The position numbers and the translations under genes were made by a program. DNA of 64,000 nt. Origin: a plasmid. The stretch lies in sequence record NZ_CP135254.1. One strand, 5' to 3'. How positions within the stretch are numbered: position 1 is the first letter of the stretch; each line of letters starts with the position of its first letter. The notes below the pieces were generated by a model, which saw only the letters and a program-made list of their open reading frames with translations, did no database searches and had not been told where the DNA came from. Shown here piece by piece: positions 1,401-35,953 of this stretch.

Positions 1401-2004
1401 TGCGGCGGGCATAGGCACAACACATAATTTAGTTACATCATCCGGTTAGATTCCCCGTGAACCGCACCAGCGCAATCCTCAGCACCGCACATACCACTCA
1501 GAACACCGCAGAAACCTCGCCTCCCACCACCGGAGAACGCTGACGCTTCAACAACATATGTGCCCCCTCCCCACCACTGAAAAGCGCCGCCGCCCCCGGC
1601 CAAAGGCCGGGGAAGACATCGCTTTTAATGATGGGTGTTGTAACTACTCTTTTCATCGCTGTGGGTGGAGCTGCGGTCAGTTGTCTGGTACACGCTCGTA
1701 AGCGGCCCTCCGGCCCGCTAACGCGGAGATACGCCCCGACTGCGGCTGTCGCCTTGTCGTGACCACTCCGACCGCGTACAGAGGCGTCTGTGATGTTTTA
1801 AGCGGGTATGGCTTATCAGGGCGGGGGAAGGGATTGGCAGAACCTGTCAAAACAGCAGCCGGCTGCGCCGGGCTACGGCGCCATTTGCCCTCGGTACTCC
1901 ATTCAACTACTGCTGGCGCCTCTATGCCGCTGAAGCGGCATCCTGACTCCAGATCCACATCGATCACATCTTCTATACTTTCAGTCTGGCCACTGGAGGT
2001 AACC

Positions 2005-2226
2005 ATGTGCGGACGTTTTTCTCAGTCATTAACGCGGGAAGAGTATCTTTCTCTCTTCGCCAATAAAGCCGATCGAAATATTGCCTACGACCCGGAACCC
2101 ATCGGTCGCTATAACGTCGCCCCGGGTACCAGGGTGTTACTTCTGAGCGAACGCGACGAACAGCTGCAGCTCGATCCGGTTCACTTGTATACGAGTAATA
2201 AAGTTGGATACCTGATCCGCCTCTAA
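2005..2226 (+). pseudogene. SRAP (SOS-response-associated peptidase, YedK/HMCES-like) gene fragment, 3'-truncated
   Basis: Begins MCGRFSQSLTREEYL...YDPEPIGRYNVAPGTRVLLLSERDEQLQLDPV, the hallmark N-terminus of YedK-family proteins. Similarity stops after about 63 codons, where the reading frame runs into the AAAGTTGGATACC repeat region. Full-length SRAP proteins are about 220 aa. Confidence 0.6.
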
Positions 2227-2336
2227 GCCGCATTCTACGACATGAAAAACAGCATTATAAAAATAAAGTTGGATACCAAACTGCAAATCCAGCACCGATA
2301 ACGAGAAAGCATAGAGTAAAAAAGTGGGATACCAAT
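2196..2336 (+). repeat. Three direct repeats A(A)TAAAGTTGGATACC spaced 56-65 bp apart
   Basis: Copies at 2200-2212, 2265-2277 and 2321-2333 (the third reads AAAGTGGGATACC). They sit exactly where homology to the SRAP gene is lost. Confidence 0.5.
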
Positions 2337-2513
2337 TCAGTAAGCCATGCCTAGATGTGACGATTAAACACTTCATGCGCTCTCAGGTCTGCTCTCGGAT
2401 TTATCTCCAACACACGAGAACGAAGCTCGCGATGATCTATGTGAGCCGAACGGCGCTCCCACGTCTGACCATTTTGTTCAATGCCTTGAGTTAATTCGAT
2501 GCAGTCATCCAGA

Positions 2514-5321
2514 TCAAATTTCGGAAGCAAAGGCTGGACTGACCTGTGCCCCCTGGTTCATGATCTCGACATAGCCAATTAGCTCTGCAGAGTAACTACC
2601 ATCCCCATTGGCGGCCCCCTTATGTTTCAGTTCCCGCTGCAGAGTCGGCTCAATAACATGCGTGAATATTTCCTGCCGTTGTTCGAGCGCAAACTTCGAT
2701 AATGTTACCGGTGCCTGCAGATATTGCTCAACCTGCCGCTCAACCACCGGAACTCGTGTACCATCTTGCTTAACGGCAATCGGCTGAACCACGACTCGAC
2801 GTTCACCATTGCCAGAAGAAGCTTCGACCATCCACAGAGAGAGCAGAACAGGGGTATCTAAGTCGCCAGAAACGGCAATGCCAATTTCCTCAGGCGGAAC
2901 ACTGCGCCAGCGGCCAAGCTCTTCCTGAACCAGAGGGTGATCCAAGCCCATCAACTCCAAGTTATCGCTGCTTGTCGCTAAATCTCGGTTCAATGTGAAT
3001 CGTTGTTGACTCGACCCATCAATAGTCACTAAGTCATAGGTCTCGTTGTCGATCTTGACCAAGCGTTGCTGACGATCTGCCACCGCTGCCGAAAGGAAGC
3101 GTACCAGCCGATCCAGACTAGATGAAACATCGGAAAATGGTTTGTAGTCATCAAGACTGAAACCATCAAGGTCTTGGAATAGGTCAAAAACAACCTGTCG
3201 AGCTTCCCGTGAATTTGAGAGCGCAGCCTCAAGTTCCACTTGTGTTCGTTTCAATTCAGGGTCTGACAAAGCTTCTTGGTAGAGTCGGTCATAATTTAGA
3301 CGCTCAGATAGCTGACCAAGAATCTGTGCACGCAGGTCTTCAGCTACGTTACCTTGATCGTCAACCTTACCGACTGTCTTGGCTATTTCCGTCAGCTTTT
3401 CATCAAGCATCAAGAAAATTCGCCCTTCGATGGTATCGGAGAGAACGAGGTTGTAGACCTGCGCCGTGTGGTTTTGACCATAGCGATGAATACGCCCGAT
3501 ACGCTGTTCCACATCCATCGGGTTCCATGGCAGATCGAAATTGAACAGGATGCGCGCAAATTGCAGATTCAAACCTTCACGGCCAGCTGCAGTACAAACC
3601 AGAACACGCGGCCCATTCTTCAAGCGGAATTTCCGTTCTGCCGCCAGCTTGGCTCCATGATCGCCACCACGCAAAACCACCACTCCCTGTCCTGGATACG
3701 CCTGTTCAATCTCGCGAGCAATTAGATCGACAGTCCCAAGATAGGTGGCGAAGATAACGATCTTCTCGCTGGCATTTTGCCGCCATAAATAACCCAGACC
3801 ATCAAGCAGCTTCTGCGCCTTAGTTTCACGCTGCTGCGGAAACACATTGAGAAGATCGCCAATTCGCAAACGCTCTTCTGGCAAGTGAAGCTCCACAACA
3901 GCCGACGCAGCTTCTTCGGCATTGGTTGCCAAGTATTCACTGCCATAAGGATCGGAGGCCATCTCAAGCGCCTCTGCATCAAGCTTTTTGACCAAACGGA
4001 ACTTGAGATCGGCCAACACTCGATCCACTTCGCTACGCCCAATGCTGTCGTAAGGCAGAGCATATTCTTCATGAATCAAAACTCGAGCTTCTTCAGTCAG
4101 ACGTTCACGCCCTTCAATATCAAGATCTTTATCGCGCAGTAATGCCTCGTGGAGGGTCAACATAAGCAGACGACGCTTGAGCGTTCGGCGTACAGCCGCG
4201 AAGCTTGATGCTGCTATCTTCTGGAAAATGGCCATCAAAAAGCCCAGCGCGCGCCCCTGGTTTCCTTGACGACGAGCCAAGTCAAAACCATCCTCCAGAT
4301 ACTCGCGCAACCTCTCGTAAAACAGCCGCTCATCCTCATTCATAAGGAACGACTCGGTATGAACCCAGCGACGAGCAAACAGTGGTGAACCATCTGGTTG
4401 GCAAGCATCCGCCTTGGTCCGGCGAAACATCACAGTATTGAGACGGTGGCGGTTCTCCAGCATTTCCTCTGGGCTACCAAACAAAGTGGGGTTCAGGAGC
4501 TGCGCCAGCATCCAGAACTGAAAGTGATTGCCCTGATGCGGCGTGGCCGATAACAACATCAGGTCACGAGAGTGATCTTTCAGCGCCTCGGCGAGCTTGT
4601 AATTCTCCGTCTTCCGGACCTTACCACCCGTTCGAGAAGCCGTCAGATGATGAGCCTCATCAAAAACCACCAGATCCCACCGAGGAGCATCCAGCAAGCG
4701 TTTAATACGCGCCGGACGTTTGAGTGTATCGATGCTCGCAATCAATCGATCGTGCTTGGCAAATGCATTGGTTTTACGGTCAGTTATGTCGCCCTCAGAA
4801 CCGAACACTTCAAAATCGAGGTTGAATACCTCGTTCAGCTCCCGGTGCCAGTTATTCACTAACCCTGCAGGTACCACCATCAGTGCGCGATTCAGCTCCC
4901 CTCTGCTGGCCAACTCACGCAAAATCAAAGCTGTTTCAATGGTTTTGCCCAACCCCACCTCATCAGCGATCAGATAGCGTCGGGGGGATGCTGTCGCAAT
5001 CCGGTGCGTCAGCACCACCTGGTGCGGCAGCAGGTCAATCTTTGCGGAAGTCAGTGCCGATGCACTTTCCATGACGGGCAACGCATGGGCCTCATAGGAC
5101 AACCACGCTTTGCGCGCCCGATCTGCGCCGCCATCAACGGCACGCAGGATGCGCTCGGTGCGTGAGAGCTGGCGCCGCACAGCGCCAACAGGTACGCGGC
5201 GTTCACCAACCCCAAAGAAAGCGCGCAGGTAACCATCTCGCACAGGATCAAGCACCACCCCCTGCCCGAACTCATGGTGAATAATCCGCTCACCTGGTTG
5301 AAACAATGCATCCGCTTCCAC
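2514..5321 (-). CDS. SNF2-family (SWI2/SNF2) helicase, candidate BrxHII-like component of the defence operon
   Basis: 935 aa with an ATP-binding motif DEVGLGKT, a DEAHH box, LLSATP, and a helicase C region (QRIGRIHRYGQ). It is the last gene of an eight-gene co-directional operon. Confidence 0.75.
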   Translation of the reverse strand: MEADALFQPGERIIHHEFGQGVVLDPVRDGYLRAFFGVGERRVPVGAVRRQLSRTERILRAVDGGADRARKAWLSYEAHALPVMESASALTSAKIDLLPHQVVLTHRIATASPRRYLIADEVGLGKTIETALILRELASRGELNRALMVVPAGLVNNWHRELNEVFNLDFEVFGSEGDITDRKTNAFAKHDRLIASIDTLKRPARIKRLLDAPRWDLVVFDEAHHLTASRTGGKVRKTENYKLAEALKDHSRDLMLLSATPHQGNHFQFWMLAQLLNPTLFGSPEEMLENRHRLNTVMFRRTKADACQPDGSPLFARRWVHTESFLMNEDERLFYERLREYLEDGFDLARRQGNQGRALGFLMAIFQKIAASSFAAVRRTLKRRLLMLTLHEALLRDKDLDIEGRERLTEEARVLIHEEYALPYDSIGRSEVDRVLADLKFRLVKKLDAEALEMASDPYGSEYLATNAEEAASAVVELHLPEERLRIGDLLNVFPQQRETKAQKLLDGLGYLWRQNASEKIVIFATYLGTVDLIAREIEQAYPGQGVVVLRGGDHGAKLAAERKFRLKNGPRVLVCTAAGREGLNLQFARILFNFDLPWNPMDVEQRIGRIHRYGQNHTAQVYNLVLSDTIEGRIFLMLDEKLTEIAKTVGKVDDQGNVAEDLRAQILGQLSERLNYDRLYQEALSDPELKRTQVELEAALSNSREARQVVFDLFQDLDGFSLDDYKPFSDVSSSLDRLVRFLSAAVADRQQRLVKIDNETYDLVTIDGSSQQRFTLNRDLATSSDNLELMGLDHPLVQEELGRWRSVPPEEIGIAVSGDLDTPVLLSLWMVEASSGNGERRVVVQPIAVKQDGTRVPVVERQVEQYLQAPVTLSKFALEQRQEIFTHVIEPTLQRELKHKGAANGDGSYSAELIGYVEIMNQGAQVSPAFASEI

Positions 5322-5330
5322 TCGTCGACC

Positions 5331-5840
5331 TCAGGTAATTCGTAAATGAAACAGTCCAGCTACTTTGGCGCCTTCACGCAGCAAAATTTCCTGTGGATAC
5401 TCATTAGCCTCCCCCCATAGCAGGCGACCAAAATCAATCTGATTCTCACGATAAGGCGCCTCGCATAACCATAAAACAGCATCATTAGTAACCAGTTGTT
5501 TAAGTCGACTGTGACCTTGAGGTAACCAGAAGATCAACGCAGCTTCACCACCGTAATAATCCTGAAACGAGAGAATGGCGCTTTTAATCGTTTCTCCCAG
5601 CCAGATTTCTCCCTGTTCAGGAGCTAACAGATCGAGACAACCATCAAGCCCGGCGACAACTAATGTCTGGTTGTCATTGCTAGGGAGATCATCGGGCCAA
5701 CGTCCTTGCGATTGTAGAAACTGCCGCAAACTCCAGACCTCACTTGCGACACAGACTTGATTGCGAGCCTCTTCGTCCCACAACCAACTGGTGCCTCGTC
5801 GTTGCCACACGGTATCTACAGTCTGTCGCATTATGCCCAC
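5331..5840 (-). CDS. Hypothetical protein (169 aa), operon member between the methyltransferase and the helicase
   Basis: ORF with 9-10 bp overlaps or gaps to both neighbours and no recognisable motif. It could be a BrxA- or DUF3780-like accessory, but that is speculative. Confidence 0.35.
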   Translation of the reverse strand: MGIMRQTVDTVWQRRGTSWLWDEEARNQVCVASEVWSLRQFLQSQGRWPDDLPSNDNQTLVVAGLDGCLDLLAPEQGEIWLGETIKSAILSFQDYYGGEAALIFWLPQGHSRLKQLVTNDAVLWLCEAPYRENQIDFGRLLWGEANEYPQEILLREGAKVAGLFHLRIT

Positions 5841-8800
5841 TCCTCATCATCGTCAAATAAGGAGCCCTGCACCGGTAATGGTGCCAAACTTGCCTGCCAA
5901 TTTCGGTAAATATGGACTGCGAGGGACGCTGCATTGCGGGTAGCTTGATCCGGACCATTACGGTGCAACCATTCCAGCAGTGAACGCAGCGCAACATGCG
6001 GCTTGAAATTATCGTTATTCAGCGTATCCGAGGCACTAATTCCACTGCCATCAAAGCACGCTCCGATCAATACCAGCGCTTGGTCGAGATCGGAGGTTAG
6101 CTTACGTCGATGTTTTCGTTGCCAATCACGGGAAAAATCGAGTGGATTAGTCCGAGTGAAAACCTTCTTCGCCTCCGAACACCAGTTACGCTGAACAAAA
6201 TCATCTGGGGTAGTCACAGTTCCACGCAAATACTTTTGCAATTGATCGCGCTTCATCTCGTTAACCGAACCAAAAGTGCGCAAAAATTGTCGGGTCATGG
6301 GCTCAGCGTTCACTGGTGGTGCTTCGTTGCCTTTATCTGCATCCTCATCAATCAGTTGGTTAATACCAACCAGAGCCTCCCTAACTGAAATCGTACGCCC
6401 TTCATCAACGTACACTTTGCCGTAATGGCGAGAGAAGTATTCCAATGCTTTACCACGGCGAATAACCTGAATATCTGCAGCGGGCAAACCTGATTGAGCA
6501 TGATTCTCCAACATTCCTTGCAATTGACGCACATCAGCCATCACCTCACGACGCATCCGCCCCCAACTCACCGGCTTTGGCTCTTCCGTGCGCTTGCGGC
6601 AGACATGGATGATGTCGTATTCGATAGTTTGAGAACCGAAGGTACCTGGCTTTGCTCCATCACCTTTTGTCTCATCCGAGCGAATTGGGTAAGTTGCTTC
6701 AAGGTAATACCCGGCATCGAACAGCGACTCCAATACCGCCACCCAAGGCTCATCCGCACTATGGTGGAAGGTGAAAGCCAAGATACCACCGGGCTTCAAG
6801 AGTCGATGCGCCTCACGCCAGCACTGGGTAAGCAGCCGCTGATAGAAACCATCTGGATCTTCCGGCTCGCGAGCCCGATTGGCTACTGCCTCCAGAGACT
6901 TTGGGGTGTACTCGGAGCCAAAGATTGCTGGGTATTTGTTCTTGAGCGCCAGGCGAAGCCATACGTAGAAGAAATCGGACAGCTCCGAATAGTGCAGTAA
7001 GCCACCGAACGGAGGATCGGTAATCACCAGATCTAGGCTACCGCTTTCAAGTTGTGACAGATCTGTAGACGAGCCCTGATGCACTTCCACGTCTACAACT
7101 GCATCACCGGGGAATACCTTTTCGCTACTTGATTTTTCAACACCATCACTGCGAACCCGAGATACAGATTGGGGACTGACAAGTTCGTAAGGATTCTTAC
7201 CCCATTCAATCCCTTCTATGACACCATCAGCACAAGATGACCAGCGCCCACTACCCATAATACCGAAGCAAGACCCTTCGACAACATTTGTCTTGGGGTG
7301 ATAGTTGTTATTACTCATGTGGGGCACCAACTTGTCATAATTGATATCCCAGAAACAGAACATATTTCTATAGCGAATACTCTGCTGGAAAGCACCTAGA
7401 AGAGCCTCTCTAACACTCCAAGGGTAATCGCCAATGGTGAGAATTCCTCTCAGCAGCTGGGCTTGTGCCAGCAACTGACGAGGGTTGAACATCGTCCACC
7501 AGTGCGTATAGCCGTGGTTTGGAATGCCGCCGTTATTCATGTGTGTCATGAAACCGAAAGGCACCTCTGAACGAGGCCAATAGTCTTTGAGATCGGTATC
7601 CTTTCGTGCTTCCCATTCAACGAGCGCGGCATCGTATTGGCATGCGTGAATTGCATCATATGCGGCGAAAAAACGCCCACTATAGGGTTTGCCTGCGGCA
7701 TCGCGCTTGGGGGCGTAACCATGTACCGCATAGGCAGCCATAGGCCCGGTCTTGCCTGTGGCTTTGATGGTGGTCAGTACGTCCTGAGTTGTGCCGCAGG
7801 CTGCGCAGACGTAATGGGATTTTTTCGGTACCGTGCCATTTTGCGGAGCAAAAATGACCTTTGTTTCTGGGCACGTCACTTCCTCCGGCAGCGCGCCGCG
7901 CACCTCCAGCAGCCGAATCTTGGATGCGCGTTCATTGTCCCACCGCGTGGTTGCAGCCACATCATCCTGCGCCGAGCCGCCGTAAGGCTGGCTATTCGTA
8001 TCCTGCTTAGGCGAACCCGCCAGCCATTGCGGATGCACCAGCAGGCTCAGTTCCACCTTCTTGTTCTTGCCCTTGCCGAGGTTAACCATCGCCGTATGGC
8101 CACAATGCGGGCAGATCACGCCCTTCCGGCGGTCGAGCACAGAAAACGGATGTTCGGAAGGTGCCACATACAGTGGCGCATCTGGGGCCATCCGCGCCAT
8201 ATCTTCCTCAACATGGAAGTCGCCGCCGCACTTACTGCACGAATGCTCCCAGTGTTTGACGCTGAGCGTTTTCACCGCCATCACCGGGCTTGTCATGATC
8301 GGCGTGCGGTGACCGCAGCCCGTTACCTGACAAGGGCCGTGCTTGGCCCAGAATGTGTAGATAATCTCCGGGCCTTCGTAACGGTAATCCTTGCGCTCGT
8401 CACGAGGGATGGTCAGCGGGTCGAAATCGGCGGGCATCACCTTCTTGGTCGGTAAGTGCGTCCACGAGCCTTTCTCACCTTCCGGGCCATCGCAGTAGTA
8501 GTACGGCATGATCTGCGGCTTGACCTCGGCCTCAATGTCGGCCAGCAGCTTTTTCACTTGCTCTAGATCGACATTGGCCAGTTCCTGCTTGACCACAAAC
8601 CACGCGACGGGATTCAGGTCGTTGCCGACCATCTGCATTCCAAGGCGCGAGCCTTCCACCAGTGTGGTGCCGCCGCCCATGAAGATGTCGGCCACCTTCA
8701 GGTCCTTGAACGCACCTTTTTTCTGGTGATTGGCATAGTAGTTGTCCCACACTAGCTTGGCTGCGTGCGATTTGTCTTCCGGGGCTTTGGTCGCCGCCGC

Positions 8801-9046
8801 GATCAACATTGAGCGGAACACGCTGGAGCGCCGCCGCGCCCACCACTTCGACATCTGGTAAATCGGCTTGCCCGCGTTGCCTTCGATGATCGCCACCTGA
8901 TTGACGGGCAGGATCGGGAAGTCCACCTCCAGGCAAGTCTTGGGACGATTCGGATCGTTGAAATCGACAGTTTCAAGCGCGACCGTCTTGCCTGCGCCGA
9001 CGGCTTTGGCGACTTCTTGCGCCAGTAGTTCTTTTTTGGTGGCCAT
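5831..9046 (-). CDS. Large N6-adenine DNA methyltransferase with Zn-ribbon motifs (DUF1156/COG1743-like; candidate PglXI-type BREX methylase)
   Basis: 1071 aa with the DPPFGG catalytic motif (a DPPY-type amino-MTase motif) and several CxxC pairs (CSKCGG, CPHCGH, CAACG) typical of COG1743 methylases. It is tightly coupled to the HerA gene upstream and the 169-aa ORF downstream. Confidence 0.6.
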   Translation of the reverse strand: MATKKELLAQEVAKAVGAGKTVALETVDFNDPNRPKTCLEVDFPILPVNQVAIIEGNAGKPIYQMSKWWARRRSSVFRSMLIAAATKAPEDKSHAAKLVWDNYYANHQKKGAFKDLKVADIFMGGGTTLVEGSRLGMQMVGNDLNPVAWFVVKQELANVDLEQVKKLLADIEAEVKPQIMPYYYCDGPEGEKGSWTHLPTKKVMPADFDPLTIPRDERKDYRYEGPEIIYTFWAKHGPCQVTGCGHRTPIMTSPVMAVKTLSVKHWEHSCSKCGGDFHVEEDMARMAPDAPLYVAPSEHPFSVLDRRKGVICPHCGHTAMVNLGKGKNKKVELSLLVHPQWLAGSPKQDTNSQPYGGSAQDDVAATTRWDNERASKIRLLEVRGALPEEVTCPETKVIFAPQNGTVPKKSHYVCAACGTTQDVLTTIKATGKTGPMAAYAVHGYAPKRDAAGKPYSGRFFAAYDAIHACQYDAALVEWEARKDTDLKDYWPRSEVPFGFMTHMNNGGIPNHGYTHWWTMFNPRQLLAQAQLLRGILTIGDYPWSVREALLGAFQQSIRYRNMFCFWDINYDKLVPHMSNNNYHPKTNVVEGSCFGIMGSGRWSSCADGVIEGIEWGKNPYELVSPQSVSRVRSDGVEKSSSEKVFPGDAVVDVEVHQGSSTDLSQLESGSLDLVITDPPFGGLLHYSELSDFFYVWLRLALKNKYPAIFGSEYTPKSLEAVANRAREPEDPDGFYQRLLTQCWREAHRLLKPGGILAFTFHHSADEPWVAVLESLFDAGYYLEATYPIRSDETKGDGAKPGTFGSQTIEYDIIHVCRKRTEEPKPVSWGRMRREVMADVRQLQGMLENHAQSGLPAADIQVIRRGKALEYFSRHYGKVYVDEGRTISVREALVGINQLIDEDADKGNEAPPVNAEPMTRQFLRTFGSVNEMKRDQLQKYLRGTVTTPDDFVQRNWCSEAKKVFTRTNPLDFSRDWQRKHRRKLTSDLDQALVLIGACFDGSGISASDTLNNDNFKPHVALRSLLEWLHRNGPDQATRNAASLAVHIYRNWQASLAPLPVQGSLFDDDEEWA

Positions 9047-9056
9047 TCAAGCTTCC

Positions 9057-10868
9057 TTAATCTTCTTGTGCGCGGGATTGGCGGCGCATGTTTTCTACGG
9101 CGGCAACCAAATCGACTTCGGCCTTGGGCGTGGCCCAGCGGGTCCAGAAGGGGATCGTTGCACTGCGCGGTTCATGTTTTGGCTTGGCCATCTTGATGCG
9201 GGTCGGCAGCAGGGTGGCGTCGCCAACCACTACAGCCTCGCCTACGTCCAGCGTCGGCAGCACCTCCATCAGCCCCTCCAGGCTTTCTGGCAAGAGCTGC
9301 TTGACCACCGCCTGGTCGGTCTTGTTGGCCAGGCGCAGGCTGATGATGTTGCTGCACTGGCTGAGAATGGTCGTGCTGACATCCGAGGGGCGCTGACTGA
9401 CCACCATCAGCCCAACTCCGTACTTGCGGCCCTCTTTGGCGATGCGCTCGTAGTTTTCCAAGGCGCGCTTTTCCAGCGGGCCAGTGGAGGCGGCGCTGCT
9501 TGGCAGGTAGAGATGCGCCTCATCGCAAACGATGACAATCGGGTGGCGCGCATCGCCGTCTTCGCCCGGGCTGCTCCAGAACTGGATTTGGTAGATCAGC
9601 CGCCCGACCAAGCCCACAACCACTGGCAAGATGTCCGAGGGCACCTCGGAAAAGTCGATGATTTTGATGCCCGGATTGACGCCATCGTTGACGTTGCCTG
9701 TACCGAGCAGTTTCTTGGCGAGATCGTGTAGTGCCTCGTAGGTCTCGTAGTCCTCCGGTGCCTGATACATGAACGCATAGCGGCGGTCGTTCATTTTGGT
9801 TTTCAAGCGAATGAGGAAGCGAGAGAGCTTGCCGTTCAACGGGCCTTTTTCGGTTTTGGGCTGTCCCTTCTTCGCACCGCTGACGTATTCCTCGCCTGTG
9901 GGAATGACCTCGTCGTTTTTTCGGTCGAGGGATTCCACCAAGTCATTCAACTTGTAGGGAACCGGTGTGTCGACCGTAAACCCTTCCAGCAACTCCGGCT
10001 TGCCTAGCGCATTGATGGCAGCGCGTTTCATTTCAACGACCGAATCCATCAGGGCAAGCGCCTGATTGGGCGCATTGTCACCGGAGCGATCCACAAAAAC
10101 GGATTGCATCTCGTCATATGTCAGCAGCCAGAAAGGCAGGAAGATCGCGCCGTCTTTCTTGGTCTTGATATCGCCAATGCCTGCGATGCGGTAATGCGAG
10201 GCGAATTTCATGCTCGAATACTCGCCATGCAAATCGAGCACGACGATATTCGCGTGAGGCAGTTGTGCGGACTGCTCAAGGATGGAGGCGACGGTGAAAG
10301 ATTTTCCCGAGCCCGTGCTGCCCAGCAGCGCGGCATGGCGCTGGAAAAGCTTGTCGCCATCGATGTAGGCACTGGCCTTGCCATCCAAGGTATAGGTACC
10401 GACCTTGAGTGGGGCTGCCGCATCCGCCTTGGATGAAGCGCTCAAAATCCCCATGAAGTCTTCGAGCGACTTTTCTTCAATGGGAAACACGGGCCGGTTG
10501 ATCTCCGGCAGGATGAAAACGGCACGTGTGAAGGTGTCCTTGCGCTGCCCATCCCGAGCACGATAGGTGCCGACCAAGCTGATCGACACGCCGTTTTCCT
10601 CTTGAGGCACGCCAGCCAGATCCGCTGGCGGATCAACTTCAGGTAGCGTCGGCAGCTCCACCGGATGCCGCCAAACTCGTTCGATGATGCCGATCAGCCA
10701 TTCATCGCCCATCGACTGGATGGCAACCAATCGACCGACGCGCGCCTTTTGCAGGCGTTGGCCATCCGTCACCCGCACGGTGATCCGCGAGGTTTCAACA
10801 CTGCGGACTTCGCCCAATGACTGCTCGTCGGTGAAATTGAAAATGCTCATCCTCGCCTCACTCCACAA
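9057..10868 (-). CDS. herA: HerA-like (DUF87/FtsK-HerA superfamily) ATPase, partner of the SIR2 protein
   Basis: 603 aa with Walker A GSTGSGKS and a Walker B/DEAH-like PIVIVCDEAH. It overlaps the upstream SIR2 gene by 11 bp, the canonical SIR2-HerA pair layout. Confidence 0.7.
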   Translation of the reverse strand: MWSEARMSIFNFTDEQSLGEVRSVETSRITVRVTDGQRLQKARVGRLVAIQSMGDEWLIGIIERVWRHPVELPTLPEVDPPADLAGVPQEENGVSISLVGTYRARDGQRKDTFTRAVFILPEINRPVFPIEEKSLEDFMGILSASSKADAAAPLKVGTYTLDGKASAYIDGDKLFQRHAALLGSTGSGKSFTVASILEQSAQLPHANIVVLDLHGEYSSMKFASHYRIAGIGDIKTKKDGAIFLPFWLLTYDEMQSVFVDRSGDNAPNQALALMDSVVEMKRAAINALGKPELLEGFTVDTPVPYKLNDLVESLDRKNDEVIPTGEEYVSGAKKGQPKTEKGPLNGKLSRFLIRLKTKMNDRRYAFMYQAPEDYETYEALHDLAKKLLGTGNVNDGVNPGIKIIDFSEVPSDILPVVVGLVGRLIYQIQFWSSPGEDGDARHPIVIVCDEAHLYLPSSAASTGPLEKRALENYERIAKEGRKYGVGLMVVSQRPSDVSTTILSQCSNIISLRLANKTDQAVVKQLLPESLEGLMEVLPTLDVGEAVVVGDATLLPTRIKMAKPKHEPRSATIPFWTRWATPKAEVDLVAAVENMRRQSRAQED

Positions 10869-11934
10869 ATTTTTTCAAAAAGTCATCTAGCTGCCAGAGC
10901 GGCTCTGGTGACCGCAGTGCATTCCCTTTCCAGCGACAAACGGCCCCGTCCCCATCTTTGAACACGGCAATCACGTGAGGGTGTTCGCCAAGTAGTTGTT
11001 CAATGTTCGGAGTCGGGTTGCGCGTGACAATGATTGCGGGCATGCCTGCGGCCAGGCGGCGCTTGATGACGCCTTGCAAATGATCGTCGTTGAAGCCAAA
11101 CCCGATACATAACAGCGCCTGAGCATCAGCAAGCGCCGCATTCATCGCTGTACGCATTTCGTCAAACAAGATATTGACCAATGCGTCTTGGTACTTCGAG
11201 GGGCCGGGCACAACGATGGCTCGTTCCGCGACGGAAACATCGTTGAGAACTTCCACTGGCCCCTCATCCGTTGTCAGCCAACTGATTGAGCCATGAGGCT
11301 TATACAGACGAACTGTTTTACAGATGCGGTGATCGACCTGCTGCTGGCGTTTCTCGGCCACCAGAACACGGCTGTATTGCGTCTGGAAGAGTGGCCGGGG
11401 GCGCGGCTTACGCCGACGGAACCCTGTGAATCCTGTGTCCAGAGGGATTTCCGCGAGATCGCAAAACAATTCCAACAACGTATCGTAGTTAGTCGTAATG
11501 ACATGGATGCTGTCCGTGTTCTGCGGTGAGCCACTAAACAAACGATTCAGGAGGCGTGACGGCGCATGACCACCGGCAACCTTTTCGCCAAGAATTTTTG
11601 CCTCTGCGGCGATGGCTCTATCAAGAATCAACTTCGCGGTTTCTCCGCGTAGGGCTGACACGATCTCTCCCCATTCCGCCATGCCAAGCGGAATGCCATT
11701 CAGCCCAGCTTCGAGATTTGCCTTGATTGCGTCGACTGATTGCGCCCAGGTATTCCTTGCCCCATCGGTGGACAGAGCATCGTGCACAGCGGTTGCCAAG
11801 TGCTCCGCCAAGGCACCCATGCCGGGAAGGCCATAGCCGCAGGAAAAGCCAGAGCCGACAAGCAGCACCGGGGTTTTGCGAAAAAACCCTTGGATATCTG
11901 CGAAAAAATCGTCTGGCAAGTCGGCGGCTGTCAT
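10858..11934 (-). CDS. SIR2-like (SIR2_2 family) NADase-type effector of a SIR2-HerA antiphage system
   Basis: 358 aa with the N-terminal PVLLVGSGFSCGYGLP motif (the Rossmann GxGxS of SIR2_2 family proteins) and an ITTNYDTLLE motif. It lies immediately upstream of herA on the same strand. Confidence 0.65.
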   Translation of the reverse strand: MTAADLPDDFFADIQGFFRKTPVLLVGSGFSCGYGLPGMGALAEHLATAVHDALSTDGARNTWAQSVDAIKANLEAGLNGIPLGMAEWGEIVSALRGETAKLILDRAIAAEAKILGEKVAGGHAPSRLLNRLFSGSPQNTDSIHVITTNYDTLLELFCDLAEIPLDTGFTGFRRRKPRPRPLFQTQYSRVLVAEKRQQQVDHRICKTVRLYKPHGSISWLTTDEGPVEVLNDVSVAERAIVVPGPSKYQDALVNILFDEMRTAMNAALADAQALLCIGFGFNDDHLQGVIKRRLAAGMPAIIVTRNPTPNIEQLLGEHPHVIAVFKDGDGAVCRWKGNALRSPEPLWQLDDFLKKFVE

Positions 11935-11940
11935 ATCTAC

Positions 11941-12960
11941 CTACTTCGATAGTTCAACGAAGGGCGACAGCACTTCCAGCAGCGAGAGGCCGCCGTGCGT
12001 CAATGTCGGGTAACCGCCCTGACTGCGCCACTTTCTGCGGCCCAGCGCCAACAGGTGCGCACCGTGCGGACTGTCAATTTGCAACGCAACGGGAGGCACA
12101 AAGGGGCCAGTGTCACCGTTACCAGCCTTGCTACGCCCGCTTGAGAACGTTTGCTTGAGGTGGGCGACAACCTCACCATCGGCATCGGGGAAGTAACCCG
12201 TGGCGGCGTAGCCGTGATCCGAGGTAATGACCAAGCGCCGCCCAGTGGCGAGGCGCTCAACAAAGGCCCAAAAGTCGTCACTAGAAAGTTGCTGCGCAGC
12301 ATCCTTGGTCAGCAGCTCCAGACCTTGGCCTGCGCCGTAGTCGTGCAGCTTGGCGTCTGGCCAGTGATGCCAGAACACCCAGTTCTTCGCGCCAGATGCA
12401 CTGCCCACCAAACCTTCGCAATCCTTCCACGGCAGATCGATGGTTTCGGTCTGCGCGGGTTGAAGTTTGTGTGCCAATCCACCGCCGTTGGCCTGCAACT
12501 GGCTTCGGCTGGACAAGCCCAGCGCTCGGGCAAACTCGTTGGTTTCGCCGGGTAATTCGGAGGCGGTCGCTGTGACGCCCTGCAGGGTGAATCCACGTTC
12601 TTTCGCTCCCTGCAGCAACCAAGGCAGTTCGCGCAGGCTCAGGGCATCCAGAACCAGCACGGCGCGGGCAGCACTGTTGCCATAACTCGGCTCGGCCCAC
12701 CAACGCGCAAGACGGTCTGAGGTGCGTTCCACGCCGCTGATCTCGGATTGTCCGAAGCATCGCCACAGATCCCAACCACTGGACGCAAGGAACAGATCGA
12801 GCTCGCCGATCTCGCGGTCGCGCTTTACGACCTCGCCCGGGGCATTGCCCTCGGCCAATGGTCGTGAGGCGATATCGAGCGTGCGTTCGATGATGAAACT
12901 CCACGCATCCGCTGCGGTGCCTTGAGTCAGACGCTGCAATATTCCTGCATCAAGCGCCAT
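11941..12960 (-). CDS. Short PglZ-like (alkaline-phosphatase-fold) protein
   Basis: 339 aa with RRLVITSDHGYAATGYFP, the TxDHG signature of the alkaline phosphatase superfamily to which PglZ belongs. Its start overlaps the stop of the upstream 718-aa gene (ATGA), and the SIR2 gene begins 6 bp after its stop. It is much shorter than BREX type-1 PglZ (about 850 aa). Confidence 0.45.
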   Translation of the reverse strand: MALDAGILQRLTQGTAADAWSFIIERTLDIASRPLAEGNAPGEVVKRDREIGELDLFLASSGWDLWRCFGQSEISGVERTSDRLARWWAEPSYGNSAARAVLVLDALSLRELPWLLQGAKERGFTLQGVTATASELPGETNEFARALGLSSRSQLQANGGGLAHKLQPAQTETIDLPWKDCEGLVGSASGAKNWVFWHHWPDAKLHDYGAGQGLELLTKDAAQQLSSDDFWAFVERLATGRRLVITSDHGYAATGYFPDADGEVVAHLKQTFSSGRSKAGNGDTGPFVPPVALQIDSPHGAHLLALGRRKWRSQGGYPTLTHGGLSLLEVLSPFVELSK

Positions 12961-15116
12961 CAGTTGTCCTCCTTCTCAAGACTCAGCTCGAAAGTCATGC
13001 CATCGGGCAGCTTCTTGAGCAGTTCCTTGAGCTGCGCGCCGGTGGCGGCAGACACCTTGATTGAGACTTCTGCCACAGGCGTGGCCGGGCCAATACCCCA
13101 GCCTTCGAGCTTGCCGATCAGGTTTAGCGGCGAGGTTGGCGGGTTAGAGAGCGGGATGCGCGGTTTGGTGGTGCTGCTTGTGCCGCCACCAAAAATGTCA
13201 CCTCCATTCTGCGACGTACCGGTGCCGGGAGTGTTATCGCCACCAACAGGTGCGGGTGGTGTGGTCGTGCCACCGCCAAAGATATCGCCGCCCGATCCAT
13301 TATTGGGGGTGCCTGCAGGTGGCTGCGGCACGGGTGGAGTAGTGCCGCCAGTGGCAGGCACAGCCGAGGGTTCCATAAGGAACACTTCATCAAGCTGACG
13401 CCCGGTATAGGAGAGTTTGGGCCGCAAGCGCCGCCACGCAGATTCCTCGTCCTCGCCTGCGTGGGTTTGCAGATGCTCCAGATTACGCAGGTTGATGGCG
13501 ATCTTGCCGCGCGCGCACAGACGGAGGATGCGCTCCTTCATCGCAGTTTCGCCCAGCCAAGGGATGCAATCCTGGCCTGCCGGGCGTGGCTCCTGCAGTT
13601 CGCGCAGCAGCTTGCCGAGGGATGCGTTCTCAGATGCCGCTTCGAGCACGAGCTCTTCGAAGTCTTCGGGCACGAAGAGATCGTTGGTCAGCGTTTCCTC
13701 GATGCCCTCGGGAATTTGTGCACCTTGCTTTTTCAAGTGCTCGACACTGAATAGAGATTGCTGCGGGTTTTGGTGATCGTAGCGGTGCAAGACAGCGAAA
13801 CGGTCAAAGCGCTTCTTCAGGTTGTCACGCAGGGTGCCTTCGAACTCTTTGTGGAGCTTTTTGTATTCCGCCGGATTTGTGGAATTATGGCCGCTCCATT
13901 CCTGCGCCTTCATTTCAGCGCGCGCGAGGATGAGCAGATCGCGATCCAGGAATGCATTGGTGGAACCAGATCGGGGCAACAGGAAGCGAACTGTATTGCG
14001 GCGCTTTTGCAGGTGATCTTTGAGCCAACGGCCCAGTGTCTGATCGATTTTTTCCGGTTCTTCCGGCAGTACCAGGACAGGCAAACGGTCATCCCAGCGC
14101 TCTGGCTGCTCGGCTTCATCTAGTGATGTCCATGGGTCTGTCTGCCAAGATCTAGGCAGTGCAATCACGCGGAAATTTTTTGCGACCTCATCGCTGCCGC
14201 CGATGACATAGCGAGCCTGTTTGGCCAACTGTGCCAGATCGGAGCCATCGGTAAATAGCTTGTCGTTACGGGCACAAACCATCAATTTGGCACGAGGGTT
14301 TTCTTCCTCACGAAAGACCATACGCGGGCCATCCTGATGGATGTTGAAGCTGTTCTCGACAATCGTTGCCAGCTCGACCTGGAAAGCATTGCCATCCACA
14401 GGCTTGTTTCGAGTGATGTCCACCTGCAGCGTGGCGGGATCGGCTCCCGCGAGGTTGCCGACGGCAATCGACCGCAGCCACAGTGCCCCCACGATCTCTT
14501 GCAGGTGTGGTGCAAGGTTGGCGTGGTTGTATACCGCCTCGGTCACCGAGATGATGTTGTGCTGCGCTTTTTCTCGCAGGGTGCGATGGTGCTCATTAGA
14601 AACCGAATCCAGCAGTGCGCCGATGCCCGATGCATCGTCATCCAGCCGGAAGTCGGCGGCGGTGAGCACAGGCACGGCTTCGCCACGGCTCTTGTAAAGA
14701 TTAGCCAAGATGCGAATCATGTCGCGCGTTTCCTGCGCGTCAGTGGCGATCAGCACCTGTTCCTCAAGCAGACGTAACAGGTGCGGTGCATAAGGCCAAG
14801 ACTCGGTGAACTCGCGACGCTTGCGATCCTGCTCGGCGGGCGGCACATCAAGCAGGCGGAAGTATTCTGAGACGTGCTGGGCAACTAGTGATTCAATGGT
14901 GCCATCGGCAATCTGCAAGCGGTTGTCGAACAGACGGTGCAACAACATCCGGCGCCGATCCTGCTGTATACGCTCGGCATTACCCCCCGCCTTGAAGTCG
15001 ATGGCCACCGGGTTGACGCGGTGAACCTGCTGGTAGGCATCGCTGCCGCCATTGCGCACGGATATCACGAGCACCAACAAATCAGGGGTCGTCTCAGAAT
15101 TCGGAAAATAAAGCAC
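12960..15116 (-). CDS. Large uncharacterised protein (718 aa), first gene of the defence operon; no P-loop; low-complexity Gly/Thr/Pro tail with repeated GGDIFGGG
   Basis: ORF translation shows no Walker A motif, and its C-terminal 120 aa is a G/T/P-rich linker plus a small terminal domain. It may be a 5'-truncated or divergent BrxC/DUF499-class component, or a novel protein. Confidence 0.35.
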   Translation of the reverse strand: MLYFPNSETTPDLLVLVISVRNGGSDAYQQVHRVNPVAIDFKAGGNAERIQQDRRRMLLHRLFDNRLQIADGTIESLVAQHVSEYFRLLDVPPAEQDRKRREFTESWPYAPHLLRLLEEQVLIATDAQETRDMIRILANLYKSRGEAVPVLTAADFRLDDDASGIGALLDSVSNEHHRTLREKAQHNIISVTEAVYNHANLAPHLQEIVGALWLRSIAVGNLAGADPATLQVDITRNKPVDGNAFQVELATIVENSFNIHQDGPRMVFREEENPRAKLMVCARNDKLFTDGSDLAQLAKQARYVIGGSDEVAKNFRVIALPRSWQTDPWTSLDEAEQPERWDDRLPVLVLPEEPEKIDQTLGRWLKDHLQKRRNTVRFLLPRSGSTNAFLDRDLLILARAEMKAQEWSGHNSTNPAEYKKLHKEFEGTLRDNLKKRFDRFAVLHRYDHQNPQQSLFSVEHLKKQGAQIPEGIEETLTNDLFVPEDFEELVLEAASENASLGKLLRELQEPRPAGQDCIPWLGETAMKERILRLCARGKIAINLRNLEHLQTHAGEDEESAWRRLRPKLSYTGRQLDEVFLMEPSAVPATGGTTPPVPQPPAGTPNNGSGGDIFGGGTTTPPAPVGGDNTPGTGTSQNGGDIFGGGTSSTTKPRIPLSNPPTSPLNLIGKLEGWGIGPATPVAEVSIKVSAATGAQLKELLKKLPDGMTFELSLEKEDN

Positions 15117-15300
15117 GCTAGCGGTTGATCTGTCAGGTTGAAGCCTGAGAGGCCGAGCGCAGATCGTCAGAAAAGGCGAAAAACGATCCTAATCTGACGC
15201 AACATAGGTGGGGTGCCTGACGCCCGGTTGAGGCATAGCCTAGATTGACATGCGCGATGCAACCCTTAACTTGCTTGCACCTATCGTTTCCATGCTAGCT

Positions 15301-15432
15301 TTATCGTAACGCTAAGGAAGCTCTGAAAAAGCCCATGTTTCGCGAAATCACCGCTCTGTAACCCGCATGGTTGCTGGGATGCATTTCTCGAGCGGGGGCT
15401 TTTTCAGACCTTCCTTAGCTTAGCGTACGATT
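15301..15432. repeat. Imperfect inverted repeat of about 33 bp (cgtaacgctaaggaagctctgaaaaagcc versus ggctttttcagaccttccttagcttagcgtacg) flanking an ~60-bp spacer
   Basis: Read directly. It lies in the promoter-proximal region upstream of the 718-aa gene, between the operon and the repB remnant. Confidence 0.4.
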
Positions 15433-15473
15433 TTTTCCGAATTCTGCGGTTCCCCCTGGAAGACCTACGCAAG

Positions 15474-16073
15474 TTGGGCCAGCTCAGAGGTGGAATCAAC
15501 GAAGGCGAGCGAATGAGGCATCTTTTCTGGCGTCTTAACTTTCTCCTTCTCTCCGGGGCAACAAACAGCGCCCAGATGTACCATGAGGCCGCCGCTCTTT
15601 CCTCCGAGCTGGATACTCGTTGGTCTTACCGCTCCAAAGAGCTTATGACGCTCTACAGCAAGGCGAAATCCTATGAGGCTGGGGAACGTGTCGAGTTCGG
15701 CGGAAAGTCGTTTGCACCGCTATACACGCCCAAAAACGACACGCTGATCAACCTATTCCAGATCTCACAGCAAGAACAAGAGCAACTGAAGACGATTATC
15801 AGCACTGACGAGGCTCAGAAGCGCCGCAGAGAGCGCGATAGACTGCGTGATGAAGAACGTCGCCGCGCCGCTGGCCAGCTTGAGCGTGAAGCCTATGAAG
15901 CCAACTCATTGAGCAGGCAAAAGCCCTGGGAAGCTATGGGCATGAGCCGGGCTAAATGGTATCGCCTGGGCAAGCCTTCACCTCAACAAAACAGTGAGAC
16001 AAGTCCCTCCCCTATTACTAATGGCGAAGCCTCAGCGGTTGCCCTTCAGGCGGCCAGGTGTAAAGCCGTTTAG
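15474..16073 (+). pseudogene. Truncated replication-protein remnant (position consistent with delta-repB of NTEKPC-I contexts)
   Basis: 199-aa ORF with a charged R/E-rich segment (KRRRERDRLRDEERRR) and no complete domain. Its position next to the klcA region matches the published delta-repB...klcA...korC...ISKpn6...blaKPC arrangement. The identity is inferred from context. Confidence 0.35.
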
Positions 16074-16221
16074 ATGGCTATTTCAAAGTGAGTGAGATTT
16101 CGTAACGGATGGCAGCCCTAGAGGCTGCTTTCTTTTGAGGGGTTAGCAGGCGTATAGCCATGCTGGATCTCAGTCTATCACTACCTGCTTAATATTCCAC
16201 CTTTAGATCCGGCAGCAGTTC

Positions 16222-16450
16222 GACCAGGTGGCCAACTTACCAGGCACCGGCAGCAGCTCGACCGGGTGGCCAAGTTCAGATCTGGACGCCAGAAGGAAAT
16301 CAACCAGGTGGCCAACTTACCAGGCACCGGCAGCAGCTCGACCAGGTGGCCAAGTTCAGATCTGGACGCCAGAAGGAAATCAACCAGGTGGCCAACTCAC
16401 CAGGCATCGGCAGCAGCTCGACCAGGTGGCCCATTTCGTACGTACGAAAT
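16222..16450 (+). repeat. Tandem array of about 80-bp units (about 2.7 copies), each with two CCAGGTGGCCAAC(T/G)T submotifs; possible iterons
   Basis: Units begin near 16222, 16305 and 16385 (the third is degenerate and ends in the palindrome cgtacgtacg). The ORFs called across it (16228-16623, 16266-16499) are probably repeat artefacts. Confidence 0.7.
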
Positions 16451-20437: not shown

Positions 20438-21418
20438 CTATATGTCAAGACCCGGCTGGTTATACACGCGTTTCCTGAACAATTCAGGGCGTTTTTCATG
20501 CCATTCCTTGAGCGCCTGAACGGGTGTTTTGTGTTGGAGCGCGCGTTGCGGAATGCTGTGGTTGTAGATCTTGACGTAATTGCGCAGCGTCGATTCCAGT
20601 TCGGCAGCTGAACCAAAACGGGTCTGGTTGACGATGTCGCTGATACGACCGTTGAAGCGCTCCACCATGCCGTTGGTCTGCGGATGACGAGGCGGGATGA
20701 GCCGGTGCTCGATGCCGAGCTGCTTGCACAGGCGGTCGAACACGTGTGTGCCGCTGGGTTCCTTCTTCTTGCCGCCAGCCGTGAAGCGGTCGGTGAACTG
20801 GCTGCCGTTGTCGGTCAGAAGCTTGACGATCTTGACGGGACAGGCTTGCTGGACTTTGTTGAGGAAGTCGCCACTGCTGCCATCGGTCTGGTCGGCATAG
20901 AGCTCGATGAAGACCCAGCGCGTAGCACGGTCGATGGCAACGAAGAGATAGCGCCTTGCCGTCTCGTCGGGCATCTGCGGCAGGTACTTGATGTCGATGT
21001 GCACAAAGCCCGGCTCGTAGTCCTTGAAGGTCTTTTTCGTGGCGGGCGCAGTGCCTTCCTGCTCGACCAGGTTACGTAGATCCGAGACACCGTGGCGGCG
21101 CAGGCAACGTCCCAGGCCGGCACGCGAGACGGCTGGATTGATGAACTCGCGCGTGACCGCCAGCAGGTCGTCCGTGGGCAGCAGCAACGTCTTGCGCAGC
21201 TCCACCACGATGAGCTCCTGCTCGGGCGTGAGCGTCGTGTACATCTTGTTCGGCGCATGCGACTTGTCTTCAGGAGACTCGCGGTTTTGCCACTTTCGGA
21301 TGGTTTGGCGGGTGACGTTGTACATCCTGGCCAGTTCGGCCTGCGGGAGCGTCGAGTTCCTGATTTCCTCACGGATCAGGTGGGTAGTACGGGCTTGGCT
21401 GTGCAGTGCCTGGGTCAT
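20438..21418 (-). CDS. tnpA: IS481-family transposase (ISKpn27-like)
   Basis: 326-aa ORF containing a DDE integrase core. Its stop codon lies in the flanking target duplication. Confidence 0.7.
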   Translation of the reverse strand: MTQALHSQARTTHLIREEIRNSTLPQAELARMYNVTRQTIRKWQNRESPEDKSHAPNKMYTTLTPEQELIVVELRKTLLLPTDDLLAVTREFINPAVSRAGLGRCLRRHGVSDLRNLVEQEGTAPATKKTFKDYEPGFVHIDIKYLPQMPDETARRYLFVAIDRATRWVFIELYADQTDGSSGDFLNKVQQACPVKIVKLLTDNGSQFTDRFTAGGKKKEPSGTHVFDRLCKQLGIEHRLIPPRHPQTNGMVERFNGRISDIVNQTRFGSAAELESTLRNYVKIYNHSIPQRALQHKTPVQALKEWHEKRPELFRKRVYNQPGLDI

Positions 21419-28877: not shown

Positions 28878-29255
28878 TTTTTGTCCTGATGGTAACATTT
28901 AAGTGGTACTGCTCATCATGGTATCACTTAAGTAGTCACAATAAAATTACCCGGTATCTTTTTGGGTGGTACATATAAAGTATACTGGGCCGATTTTCTC
29001 CGCTTTATGCCATACCTGCCGAATTTTAAGCAGAATTCACGTAGCGTGATCGATTGTAAAGATCGCTTAACTCCCCTCTTAATAAATCTCATATCACTAT
29101 GTAAAGAAGCCATTTCCCGTTCCAAGCCTCACTTAAGGTGCTTTTTAGAAACAGCAGCTATCGATGGTTGGTACTGTTTAAATATCCAGATTAAACCTTT
29201 CCCTCTGGGTCAGATGAGTGATAAAGTTTCACCTATAAGACCCATTGGAGGCATT

Positions 29256-30689
29256 ATGTCTGAATTTGAATTACTGGCGCAGGATCTGCTTGAGAAAGCA
29301 GAGATAGACGAAAAGCTCCGGCAGGAAAATGATAAAAAGCTAATTGAGCAGGTGCTGGAAATCTATGATCAGAAGTACGTGGCCGAGTTACTTAGGAAAG
29401 TCGGCAAAAACGAGTGGACTCGCGAGACTCTTAATCGCTGGATTAATGGTAAGTGTTCACCTAAGTCGCTGACGTCAGCCGAAGAGGCTCTTCTGCGAAA
29501 AATGCTGCCGGAAGCGCCAGCGCATCACCCGGACTATGCTTTCCGGTTTATTGACCTGTTTGCCGGCATTGGCGGTATACGAAAAGGCTTTGAAGCCATC
29601 GGTGGCCAGTGCGTTTTTACCAGTGAATGGAATAAAGAGGCTGTGCGCACGTATAAAGCCAACTGGTTTAACGATGAGCAGGCACACACGTTTAATCTCG
29701 ATATCCGGGAAGTTACGCTCAGTGACAAACCTGAAGTACCAGAAACTGATGCCTATGCCTACATTGACGAGCATGTGCCGGATCATGATGTACTTCTGGC
29801 TGGTTTCCCTTGTCAGCCGTTCAGCCTTGCTGGCGTGAGTAAGAAAAACTCACTCGGCCGGGCGCACGGTTTCGAATGTGAAGCGCAGGGAACCCTTTTC
29901 TTTGATGTCGCGCGCATTATCCGCGCCAAAAAGCCGGCTGTCTTTGTGCTGGAAAACGTTAAAAACCTGAAGAGCCATGACAAGGGTAAAACCTTTAAAG
30001 TCATTATGGAGACCCTGGACGAGCTGGGTTATGAAGTGGCGGATGCGGCTGACATGGGCAAAAGCGATCCTAAAGTCATCGACGGAAAGCATTTCCTGCC
30101 TCAGCACCGTGAACGTATCGTGCTGGTTGGTTTCCGCCGCGATCTGAATATTCACCAGGGTTTTACCCTGCGGGATGTCAGTCGTTTTTATCCGGAACAG
30201 CGGCCGTCATTTGGCGAACTACTGGAGCCAGTGGTGGACAGCAAATATATCCTGACGCCAAAGCTCTGGGAGTACCTTTACAACTACGCCAAAAAGCACG
30301 CGGCTAAGGGGAACGGCTTCGGTTTTGGCCTGGTAAACCCTGAAAACAGGGAAAGCGTTGCCCGTACGCTTTCTGCCCGCTATCACAAAGACGGATCTGA
30401 AATTCTGATTGATCGTGGCTGGGATATGGCTACGGGTGAAACAGATTTCGCGAACGAAGAAAATCAGGCGCATCGGCCACGCAGGCTGACGCCGCGTGAG
30501 TGCGCGCGCCTCATGGGCTTCGAGAAGCCCGACGGCAGGCCTTTCCGTATTCCGGTGTCGGACACGCAGTCTTACCGTCAGTTCGGTAACTCCGTAGTGG
30601 TTCCTGTGTTTGAAGCGGTTGCGAGACTGCTGGAGCCTTACATTCTGAAAGCCGTTTCTGCCGGTGCTGGGAAGGTGGATAACATCTGA
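29256..30689 (+). CDS. ecoRIIM: DNA cytosine-5 methyltransferase, Dcm/M.EcoRII-like (CCWGG-type)
   Basis: 477 aa, collinear with E. coli Dcm and M.EcoRII ([38 protein letters not shown]..., [36 protein letters not shown]..., ENVKNL). An RBS ggagg precedes the ATG at 29256. The longer listed ORF from 28962 is an upstream extension. Confidence 0.8.
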
Positions 30690-30723
30690 GTGCACCTCCC
30701 GGCAGGGTATGCCGGGAGATTAT

Positions 30724-31932: not shown

Positions 31933-32245
31933 ACATATCCCTCTGTTGTCCTGAAATTCAACTCGTCATTTTTCCACAGTCAGACAGAAGCTGCTAGGAA
32001 GGCTTTTGTAGATGCTCTGCCTGCAGCTGAAACCGACTGTAATCAGAAAAAAGAAAAGTATCCTTCTGGGCTCCTACGGCTCGCCAGATTCTGATGGTGC
32101 AATGCAAGGTCAAATCCTGCAGCTGGCTAAAGTCCGCTATGAGCGAACAGCGGACGTTGGACTTCCCAACCTTACAAGGTAATCTAGTTTGCAAAGTTAG
32201 CGACCTCGCGCAGCCGCACTAATAAAAAGAATAGGAACGGTACAA

Positions 32246-35830: not shown

Positions 35831-35953
35831 CTCTATGTGTTCCACTTAAAGTAATATTATTGTGACCACATAAGTTGTGGCTGGCTGGCAAAGTCAGCAC
35901 TGAATGCCTCCCTGCCCAACCAGTTTATATTGGTATCCGATTTTTCTACTTGC

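Follow-up and report, generated by a model that had tools for sequence, protein, structure and literature searches.

The segment at positions 2186-2336 of a 64,000-nucleotide stretch of plasmid DNA (record NZ_CP135254.1; the whole stretch is hereafter called the window) is very likely the left end of a Tn7-like TnsABCDE transposon, which carried a defence island as cargo into an SRAP gene and whose tns genes were later lost. The element that is left in the window is a dead remnant consisting of one end and cargo, and it is unable to transpose, since only one end and no tns gene remain. This is an ordinary and well-understood kind of mobile-element scar, a textbook example; defence-carrying Tn7-like transposons and the repeat arrays at their ends are well described (PMC8649781), and literature searches found no published name for this particular element or junction. 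The reading would explain the route by which the island entered clinically important blaKPC-2 Klebsiella plasmids (i.e., as cargo of a Tn7 relative encoding the plasmid-targeting protein TnsE), and it gives the inserted island DNA exact boundaries (2186 to 15086). Once the transposition module had been lost, the island was fixed in place and was no longer self-mobile.

The point of insertion can be placed to the base. The ORF at 2005-2226, which starts MCGRFSQS..., encodes a fused protein of 73 aa, residues 1-58 of which match the Pfam SRAP model with a score (26.1 bits) just under the curated cut-off (27.1 bits), and residues 1-60 of which are identical at 58 of 60 positions (97%) to the intact 223-aa SRAP protein of plasmid pKP15ZE495-1. 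A blastn search of 72,556 plasmids with window positions 1990-2400 as the query returned 964 records, and for the intact-SRAP plasmids among the matches listed, homology ends at query position 196, which corresponds to window position 2185. Alignment to one intact-SRAP locus (L001) gives exactly 2185 as the last homologous base: where the empty site has ...GGTTCACT/GGGGTTACG, the window has ...GGTTCACT/TGTATACG, with TGT at 2186 directly after the last SRAP-homologous base. The original prediction had held that an SRAP gene is interrupted here and had suggested aligning it with intact-SRAP plasmids; the alignments bear this out, defining both the empty site and the breakpoint (2185/2186). The intact homologues are 223 aa long and do not end in YTSNKVGYLIRL, and intact SRAP genes are without the repeats described below. 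The 73-aa SRAP ORF, together with the small ORFs predicted across the end, are annotation artefacts, the last part of the former being read through from the transposon end (Table 1). All SRAP-context junctions among the fetched loci that were compared are identical, which suggests that a single ancestral insertion decayed step by step.

Table 1. Coordinates of the element, its insertion boundary, and its cargo in the window
Feature	Positions	Strand	Basis
SRAP/YedK-like gene, 5' remnant (codons 1-60), IncFII-type backbone	2005-2185	+	Pfam, protein, and DNA comparison
TCACT, predicted target-site duplication beside the terminus	2181-2185		Deduced from the L001 empty site and the CCTGC duplication of the complete copy
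Very likely left end of Tn7-like transposon: terminal TGTATACG, then three spaced predicted TnsB-type repeats	2186-2336	+	Boundary, homology, right-end match
Read-through tail LYTSNKVGYLIRL plus stop, from the transposon end and not SRAP sequence	2186-2226	+	Fused 73-aa ORF
Repeat L1, GAGTAATAAAGTTGGATACC, terminal site, 7 bp from the tip	2193-2212	+	Repeat search, weight matrix
Repeat L2, TAAAAATAAAGTTGGATACC	2258-2277	+	Repeat search, weight matrix
Repeat L3, GAGTAAAAAAGTGGGATACC	2314-2333	+	Repeat search, weight matrix
Defence island, transposon cargo	2337-15086	-	PADLOC, annotation, identity to complete copies
SNF2 helicase	2514-5321	-	Annotation
Hypothetical gene	5331-5831	-	Annotation; without PADLOC match
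DUF1156 N6-methyltransferase	5831-9046	-	Annotation
HerA	9057-10850	-	PADLOC, annotation
SIR2	10858-11934	-	PADLOC, annotation
Hypothetical gene	11941-12960	-	Annotation; without PADLOC match
DUF499 ATPase without its first 213 codons	12960-15086	-	Comparison with complete copies
Tn3-family 38-bp terminal inverted repeat, edge of the blaKPC-2 platform	15083-15120	+	Partner at 15421-15458

Directly inside the breakpoint, a repeat search identified one repeat family of three direct 20-nt copies, which are 100, 85, and 90% identical to the first copy, are spaced 65 and 56 bp apart, and are set in 7, 72, and 128 bp from the 5'-TGT terminus. The three direct repeats that had been predicted are therefore real, apart from one detail: the 13-mer AAAGTTGGATACC occurs in two exact copies, and the third copy differs by one mismatch (AAAGTGGGATACC). 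Elsewhere in the 64 kb, AAAGTTGGATACC at up to two mismatches has a single match, a two-mismatch occurrence at 35932, compared with approximately 0.9 chance matches expected per whole window. This occurrence is a lone match of 18 bits, without neighbouring sites or a TGT terminus, and is at chance level. A weight matrix built from six sites (window and Citrobacter) and scanned over both strands of the window gave nothing comparable outside the left end.

Applied to other elements, the same matrix recovers the left-end site positions (+8, +73/74, and +129/130) in the window, the Salmonella IncC plasmid pYULZMPS10, and the Aeromonas plasmid pMCR5_045096, and it recovers a second layout, with sites at +8, +28, and +48, at the right ends of the Citrobacter, Kluyvera, and Moritella elements. 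A chance or low-complexity origin of the repeats in AT-rich spacer DNA is extremely improbable; although the surrounding sequence is indeed AT-rich and one copy, the third, is imperfect, three copies fall within 140 bp where about 0.9 would be expected per 64 kb, their positions are conserved in the diverged Salmonella and Aeromonas plasmid ends, and right ends carry the motif as well. Similarity between the window and the Salmonella IncC left end (85% identity) covers exactly 2186-2336 and goes no further, and this limit would delimit the functional end at about 151 bp. The end in the window is assigned as the left one because it adjoins the cargo and its sites are spaced, the right end being by convention that upstream of the tns genes (PMC11406308).

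Since repA and the origin are approximately 1 kb away, and the repeats are direct and regularly spaced, the latter could also be read as a feature of the plasmid backbone downstream of the IncFII origin (e.g., iterons, a partition centromere, or an operator). This is highly improbable, as the repeats lie beyond 2185, where backbone homology ends, are absent from the intact L001 locus and from the listed intact-SRAP plasmids (in which homology stops at 2185), and accompany the island in an IncN plasmid and in chromosomal contigs.

Relatives that retain tns genes connect this end to a transposon. The first 27 bp of the terminus (TGTATNCGAGTAATAAANNNNNATACC), scanned against a genome set with a single representative of each species, gave three matches. 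In Moritella sp. PE36, the motif starts 25 bp past the stop codon of glmS (identified by SIS and glutamine-amidotransferase domains) and is followed by two further abutting repeat copies and then by ORFs of 288, 692, and 553 aa; Pfam identifies the 288-aa and 553-aa ORFs as TnsA and TnsC, and the 692-aa ORF in the tnsB position has no Pfam match. In Kluyvera cryocrescens, the 27-bp terminus and three abutting repeats precede the gene series tnsA-tnsB-tnsC-tnsD-tnsE, the products of which match the Pfam families TnsA_N/C, Mu-transpos_C, TnsC_Int, TniQ plus TnsD, and TnsE_C. The remaining match, in a Eubacteriales MAG (L008), consists of a single motif without repeats and was treated as chance. 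Complete genomes of E. coli contain no match to the left end.

The Kluyvera TnsB, compared with plasmids by tblastn, has one close match (95.4% identity), on the C. freundii IncN plasmid pRHBSTW-00302_4, which also has the left end found in the window. On this plasmid, a SprT-like backbone gene is followed by the left end (at 73135) and by the genes of the island in the order SNF2, hypothetical, DUF1156 methyltransferase, HerA, SIR2, hypothetical, and full-length DUF499; these are succeeded by an HTH gene, tnsE, tnsD, a tnsC fragment, a large secondary insertion (ars genes, Tn3-family elements, IS elements, and a type I restriction-modification system), tnsB, tnsA, the right end (at 38824), and the backbone gene stbC. 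Read inward, the right end begins with TGTATTC and continues with GAGTAATAAAGTTGGATACC, AAGTAATATAGTTGGATACT, and AAGTAATAAAGTTGAATACC. The sequence CCTGC lies immediately outside both termini, constituting a 5-bp target-site duplication of the type characteristic of Tn7 and its relatives (PMC11406308). Exact-protein look-ups also led to contigs of GCA_040670815.1 (4.57 Mb) and GCA_046709165.1, in which the series tnsB-tnsC-tnsD-tnsE-HTH-island-left end is uninterrupted. Window positions 2186-15086 are 99.95% identical to the pRHBSTW-00302_4 copy and 99.98% identical to a chromosomal copy; over these 12.9 kb there are two mismatches to complete copy L028 and six to L014, and one mismatch falls in site L2 of the IncN copy (GGAAACC versus GGATACC).

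The features that distinguish Tn7-like elements are divided between the window and the complete copies. TnsA plus TnsB, TnsC, TnsD/TniQ, and TnsE are all encoded in the complete copies and not in the window, which therefore holds a remnant and no autonomous member; the alignment between TnsB from the complete copy and Tn7 TnsB (PDB 7PIK; E = 1.8e-214) runs from one end to the other. Termini of the form 5'-TGT...ACA-3' meet the flanking DNA at a precise boundary, and in the complete copy the right end, read inward, likewise starts with TGT. Subterminal arrays of ~20-bp sites are inverted between the ends, spaced on the left, and packed on the right, with each pattern present in three elements; three spaced left-end sites and packed right-end sites are published features of Tn7 (PMC8649781, PMC11406308). 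By far the most likely interpretation of the three repeats, judged from sequence comparison, is that they are predicted transposase-binding subsites at the terminus of the element. The original prediction had offered transposase-binding or att-like subsites at the terminus of an integrative element; the first of these is favoured by the occurrence of the same motif at right ends adjacent to tns genes, and the second falls away, as the complete copies contain no integrase.

A related proposal, in which the repeats would be arm-type or att subsites of an island moved by a tyrosine or serine recombinase with SRAP as its attachment site, is most unlikely. Direct repeats at the edge of an island in a conserved gene are superficially similar to such an arrangement, and recombinase genes occur elsewhere in the window, but these genes belong to Tn3-type modules distant from the junction, no integrase accompanies tnsABCDE in the complete copies, and the flanks of one complete copy show a 5-bp duplication in place of att repeats. 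Across all fetched loci, moreover, the same TGT terminus abuts four unrelated flanks (SRAP, the IncN backbone, and two sites right after terminator-like hairpins), and its presence at three sites other than SRAP means that SRAP is not a dedicated attachment site. The expected combination of a recombinase at the edge, att core repeats, and one target gene was thus not found.

Several observations concern the wider distribution of the end. In the chromosomal contigs (L019 7137-7190; L033 around 20782-20830), the left end directly adjoins a terminator-like GC hairpin, with a T run after it, where a convergent gene has its 3' end; a shared terminator, for example that of glmS, would fit as the site of insertion. 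Related left ends in which the three-site spacing is kept occur on Salmonella IncC plasmid pYULZMPS10 (L010 20001-20152), where the cargo comprises metal efflux genes, and on Aeromonas plasmid pMCR5_045096 (L002 12001-12160), where a sorbitol operon is flanked by IS elements; further Aeromonas plasmids also matched. No tns genes are annotated near the Salmonella IncC and Aeromonas ends, so that the same transposon lineage may have left additional orphan ends here. Plasmid pKL53-L, taken up as a possible canonical Tn7, turned out to carry another Tn7-like element with heat-resistance cargo and was not used.

The defence island lies between tnsE and the left end in the complete copies, and is therefore transposon cargo; the earlier proposal that the defence operon belongs to an inserted mobile element is in this respect correct. 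PADLOC matches within the island are to HmaA/BrxH, HmaB, HerA, and SIR2. The SIR2-HerA pair (9057-11934) is situated between the DUF499 ATPase and the methyltransferase, so that one defence system is nested in another (PADLOC; PMC12839542). In the full-length DUF499 protein, the 213 codons lost from the window hold the Walker A (GERGLGKS) and Walker B (LLLDEF) motifs, and the HTH gene upstream of DUF499 is also missing from the window, together with the promoter region. The DUF499/methyltransferase/SNF2 module (Hma, BREX-related) is probably crippled in this plasmid, and the nested SIR2-HerA pair is intact.

On the far side of the island, homology to the complete copies ends at 15086, within the DUF499 gene, and from 15085 or 15217 on, the sequence is common to thousands of plasmids with the klcA-korC-blaKPC-2 platform. 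The original prediction placed the far end of the island at 15117-15470. What lies there instead are two paired 38-bp inverted repeats of the Tn3 family (15083-15120 / 15421-15458), which mark the edge of the KPC platform; because the pair is part of that platform, the supposed far end is the edge of a different transposon. The two Tn3-family repeats (15083-15458) are 76% complementary and bracket ~300 bp, inside which there is a 24-nt near-perfect inverted repeat (15311-15334 / 15396-15419); the whole resembles either a miniature element derived from Tn3 or the end of a hybrid transposon. KPC plasmids differ in this region, some sharing the sequence from 15085 and others only from 15217.

The best-matching record, the 142-kb IncFII/IncU plasmid NZ_CP084988.1, is 100% identical to the window over two 4-kb queries and is not base-for-base identical to it across all 64 kb. 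Searches of the window and of the whole of NZ_CP084988.1 found no inverted copy of the motif, right end, 3' SRAP part, or tns gene; the motif has no additional copy in that record, and no cognate transposase of the kind sought elsewhere on the plasmid is annotated there for this element. A complete element inside SRAP was not found in the plasmid collection or by exact-protein look-ups, every SRAP-context copy examined being cut before tnsE. The cuts in the SRAP-context copies were made by IS26, IS903B, or a Tn3-family repeat, and the full DUF499 gene and the HTH gene are kept in pKPN-262 (cut by IS26) and pKp1792_1 (cut by IS903B). The left end outlives the island when the latter is deleted, with only 183 bp left in a Raoultella plasmid. 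Left ends without the defence island are located at 86828-87010 of NZ_CP154259.1 (183 bp, with the SRAP junction) and at 23635-23888 of NZ_AP022146.1 (254 bp), where the remnant has decayed further.

A plausible history can be proposed from these comparisons. The parent element would have been a cut-and-paste transposon, with an estimated size of about 22 kb, encoding TnsA, B, C, D, and E. TnsB would bind the three repeats, and the left end would be paired with the right end; by analogy with established Tn7 biology, TnsA and TnsB would then excise the element, and TnsC together with TnsD or TnsE would pick the target. A single insertion would have occurred at SRAP codon 61 of an ancestral conjugative IncFII-type plasmid, most likely through the TnsE pathway, which in Tn7 targets conjugating DNA (PMC11406308). 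Two facts make this route likely: tnsE is among the genes of the element, and the plasmids that it entered, IncFII (with MPF_F) and IncN (with MPF_T), are both conjugative. SRAP would have been an incidental target. The second copy of TCACT would sit at the lost right junction of this insertion, which would read ...ACA/TCACTGGGGTTACGCG, with the right end joined to the 3' part of SRAP. Later rearrangements would have removed tnsABCDE, the right end, and 3' SRAP, the order assigned to these deletions being presumptive, and in this window the cut would have been made by the Tn3-family element bearing the KPC-2 platform.

The ends of Tn7 confer target immunity, and the orphan left end, with its three intact predicted TnsB sites, could, in principle, act in cis as an immunity signal of this type against related Tn7-like insertions. 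Its sites differ by no more than a few bases from those of the complete copies, and the end persists where the island has been deleted (e.g., in the Raoultella plasmid); nevertheless, such a role is unlikely, since a recent origin accounts for the high identity, nothing indicates that the end is under selection, and immunity would matter only in hosts with an active relative. It is decidedly unlikely that the end is functionally retained as a domesticated fragment that gives target immunity to the widespread KPC-2 IncFII plasmids; if it were, the left end would block reinsertion of related Tn7-like elements and would not be a neutral scar. The preferred reading remains that of a decayed transposon end.

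Other parts of the window also contain repeats and defence-type genes. An iteron-like tandem array at 16209-16431 (80-bp unit, 2.6 copies, 97% identity, 38-bp sub-period) is found a short way downstream of a 199-aa ORF (15474-16073) within the klcA/blaKPC-2 region. A second defence-type cluster at 28962-34999 comprises, by annotation, a DNA cytosine methyltransferase, a type II restriction endonuclease, and a 917-aa TrlF-family AAA-like ATPase, and is flanked by genes annotated as serine recombinases.

Compared with known systems, the complete copies resemble prototypic Tn7 in gene set and order (tnsA, B, C, D, E, cargo, left end), in their 5'-TGT termini, 5-bp duplication, and contrast between spaced left-end and packed right-end sites, and in having a relative with the same end sequence 25 bp after glmS (Moritella). 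They differ from it in end sequence (TGTATACG...AATAAAGTTGGATACC) and in the layout of the right end, which in prototypic Tn7 has four overlapping 22-bp sites and in this element has three abutting 20-bp sites (only three score in 207 bp). The cargo of Tn7 is a class 2 integron, whereas that of this element is a defence island, and the window keeps only the left end and truncated cargo. The element was therefore not assigned to prototypic Tn7, given the different right-end layout and a TnsB that is homologous but clearly a different protein; it is a relative of Tn7. The Tn5053/Tn402 group (TniA-TniB-TniQ-TniR) is similar in having a related DDE transposase, an AAA+ regulator, and multiple subterminal repeats at both ends (PMC8649781), but is without TnsA, uses a resolvase (TniR), and targets res sites; membership in this group was rejected because the complete copies have tnsA, tnsD, and tnsE and no resolvase within the element. 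The defence-cargo Tn7-like transposons surveyed by Benler et al. 2021 (PMC8649781) likewise carry defence genes between the tns module and the left end, are delimited by arrays of TnsB-site repeats, and in many cases reside on plasmids; that survey deals with complete two-ended elements, whereas the element in the window has decayed to one end.
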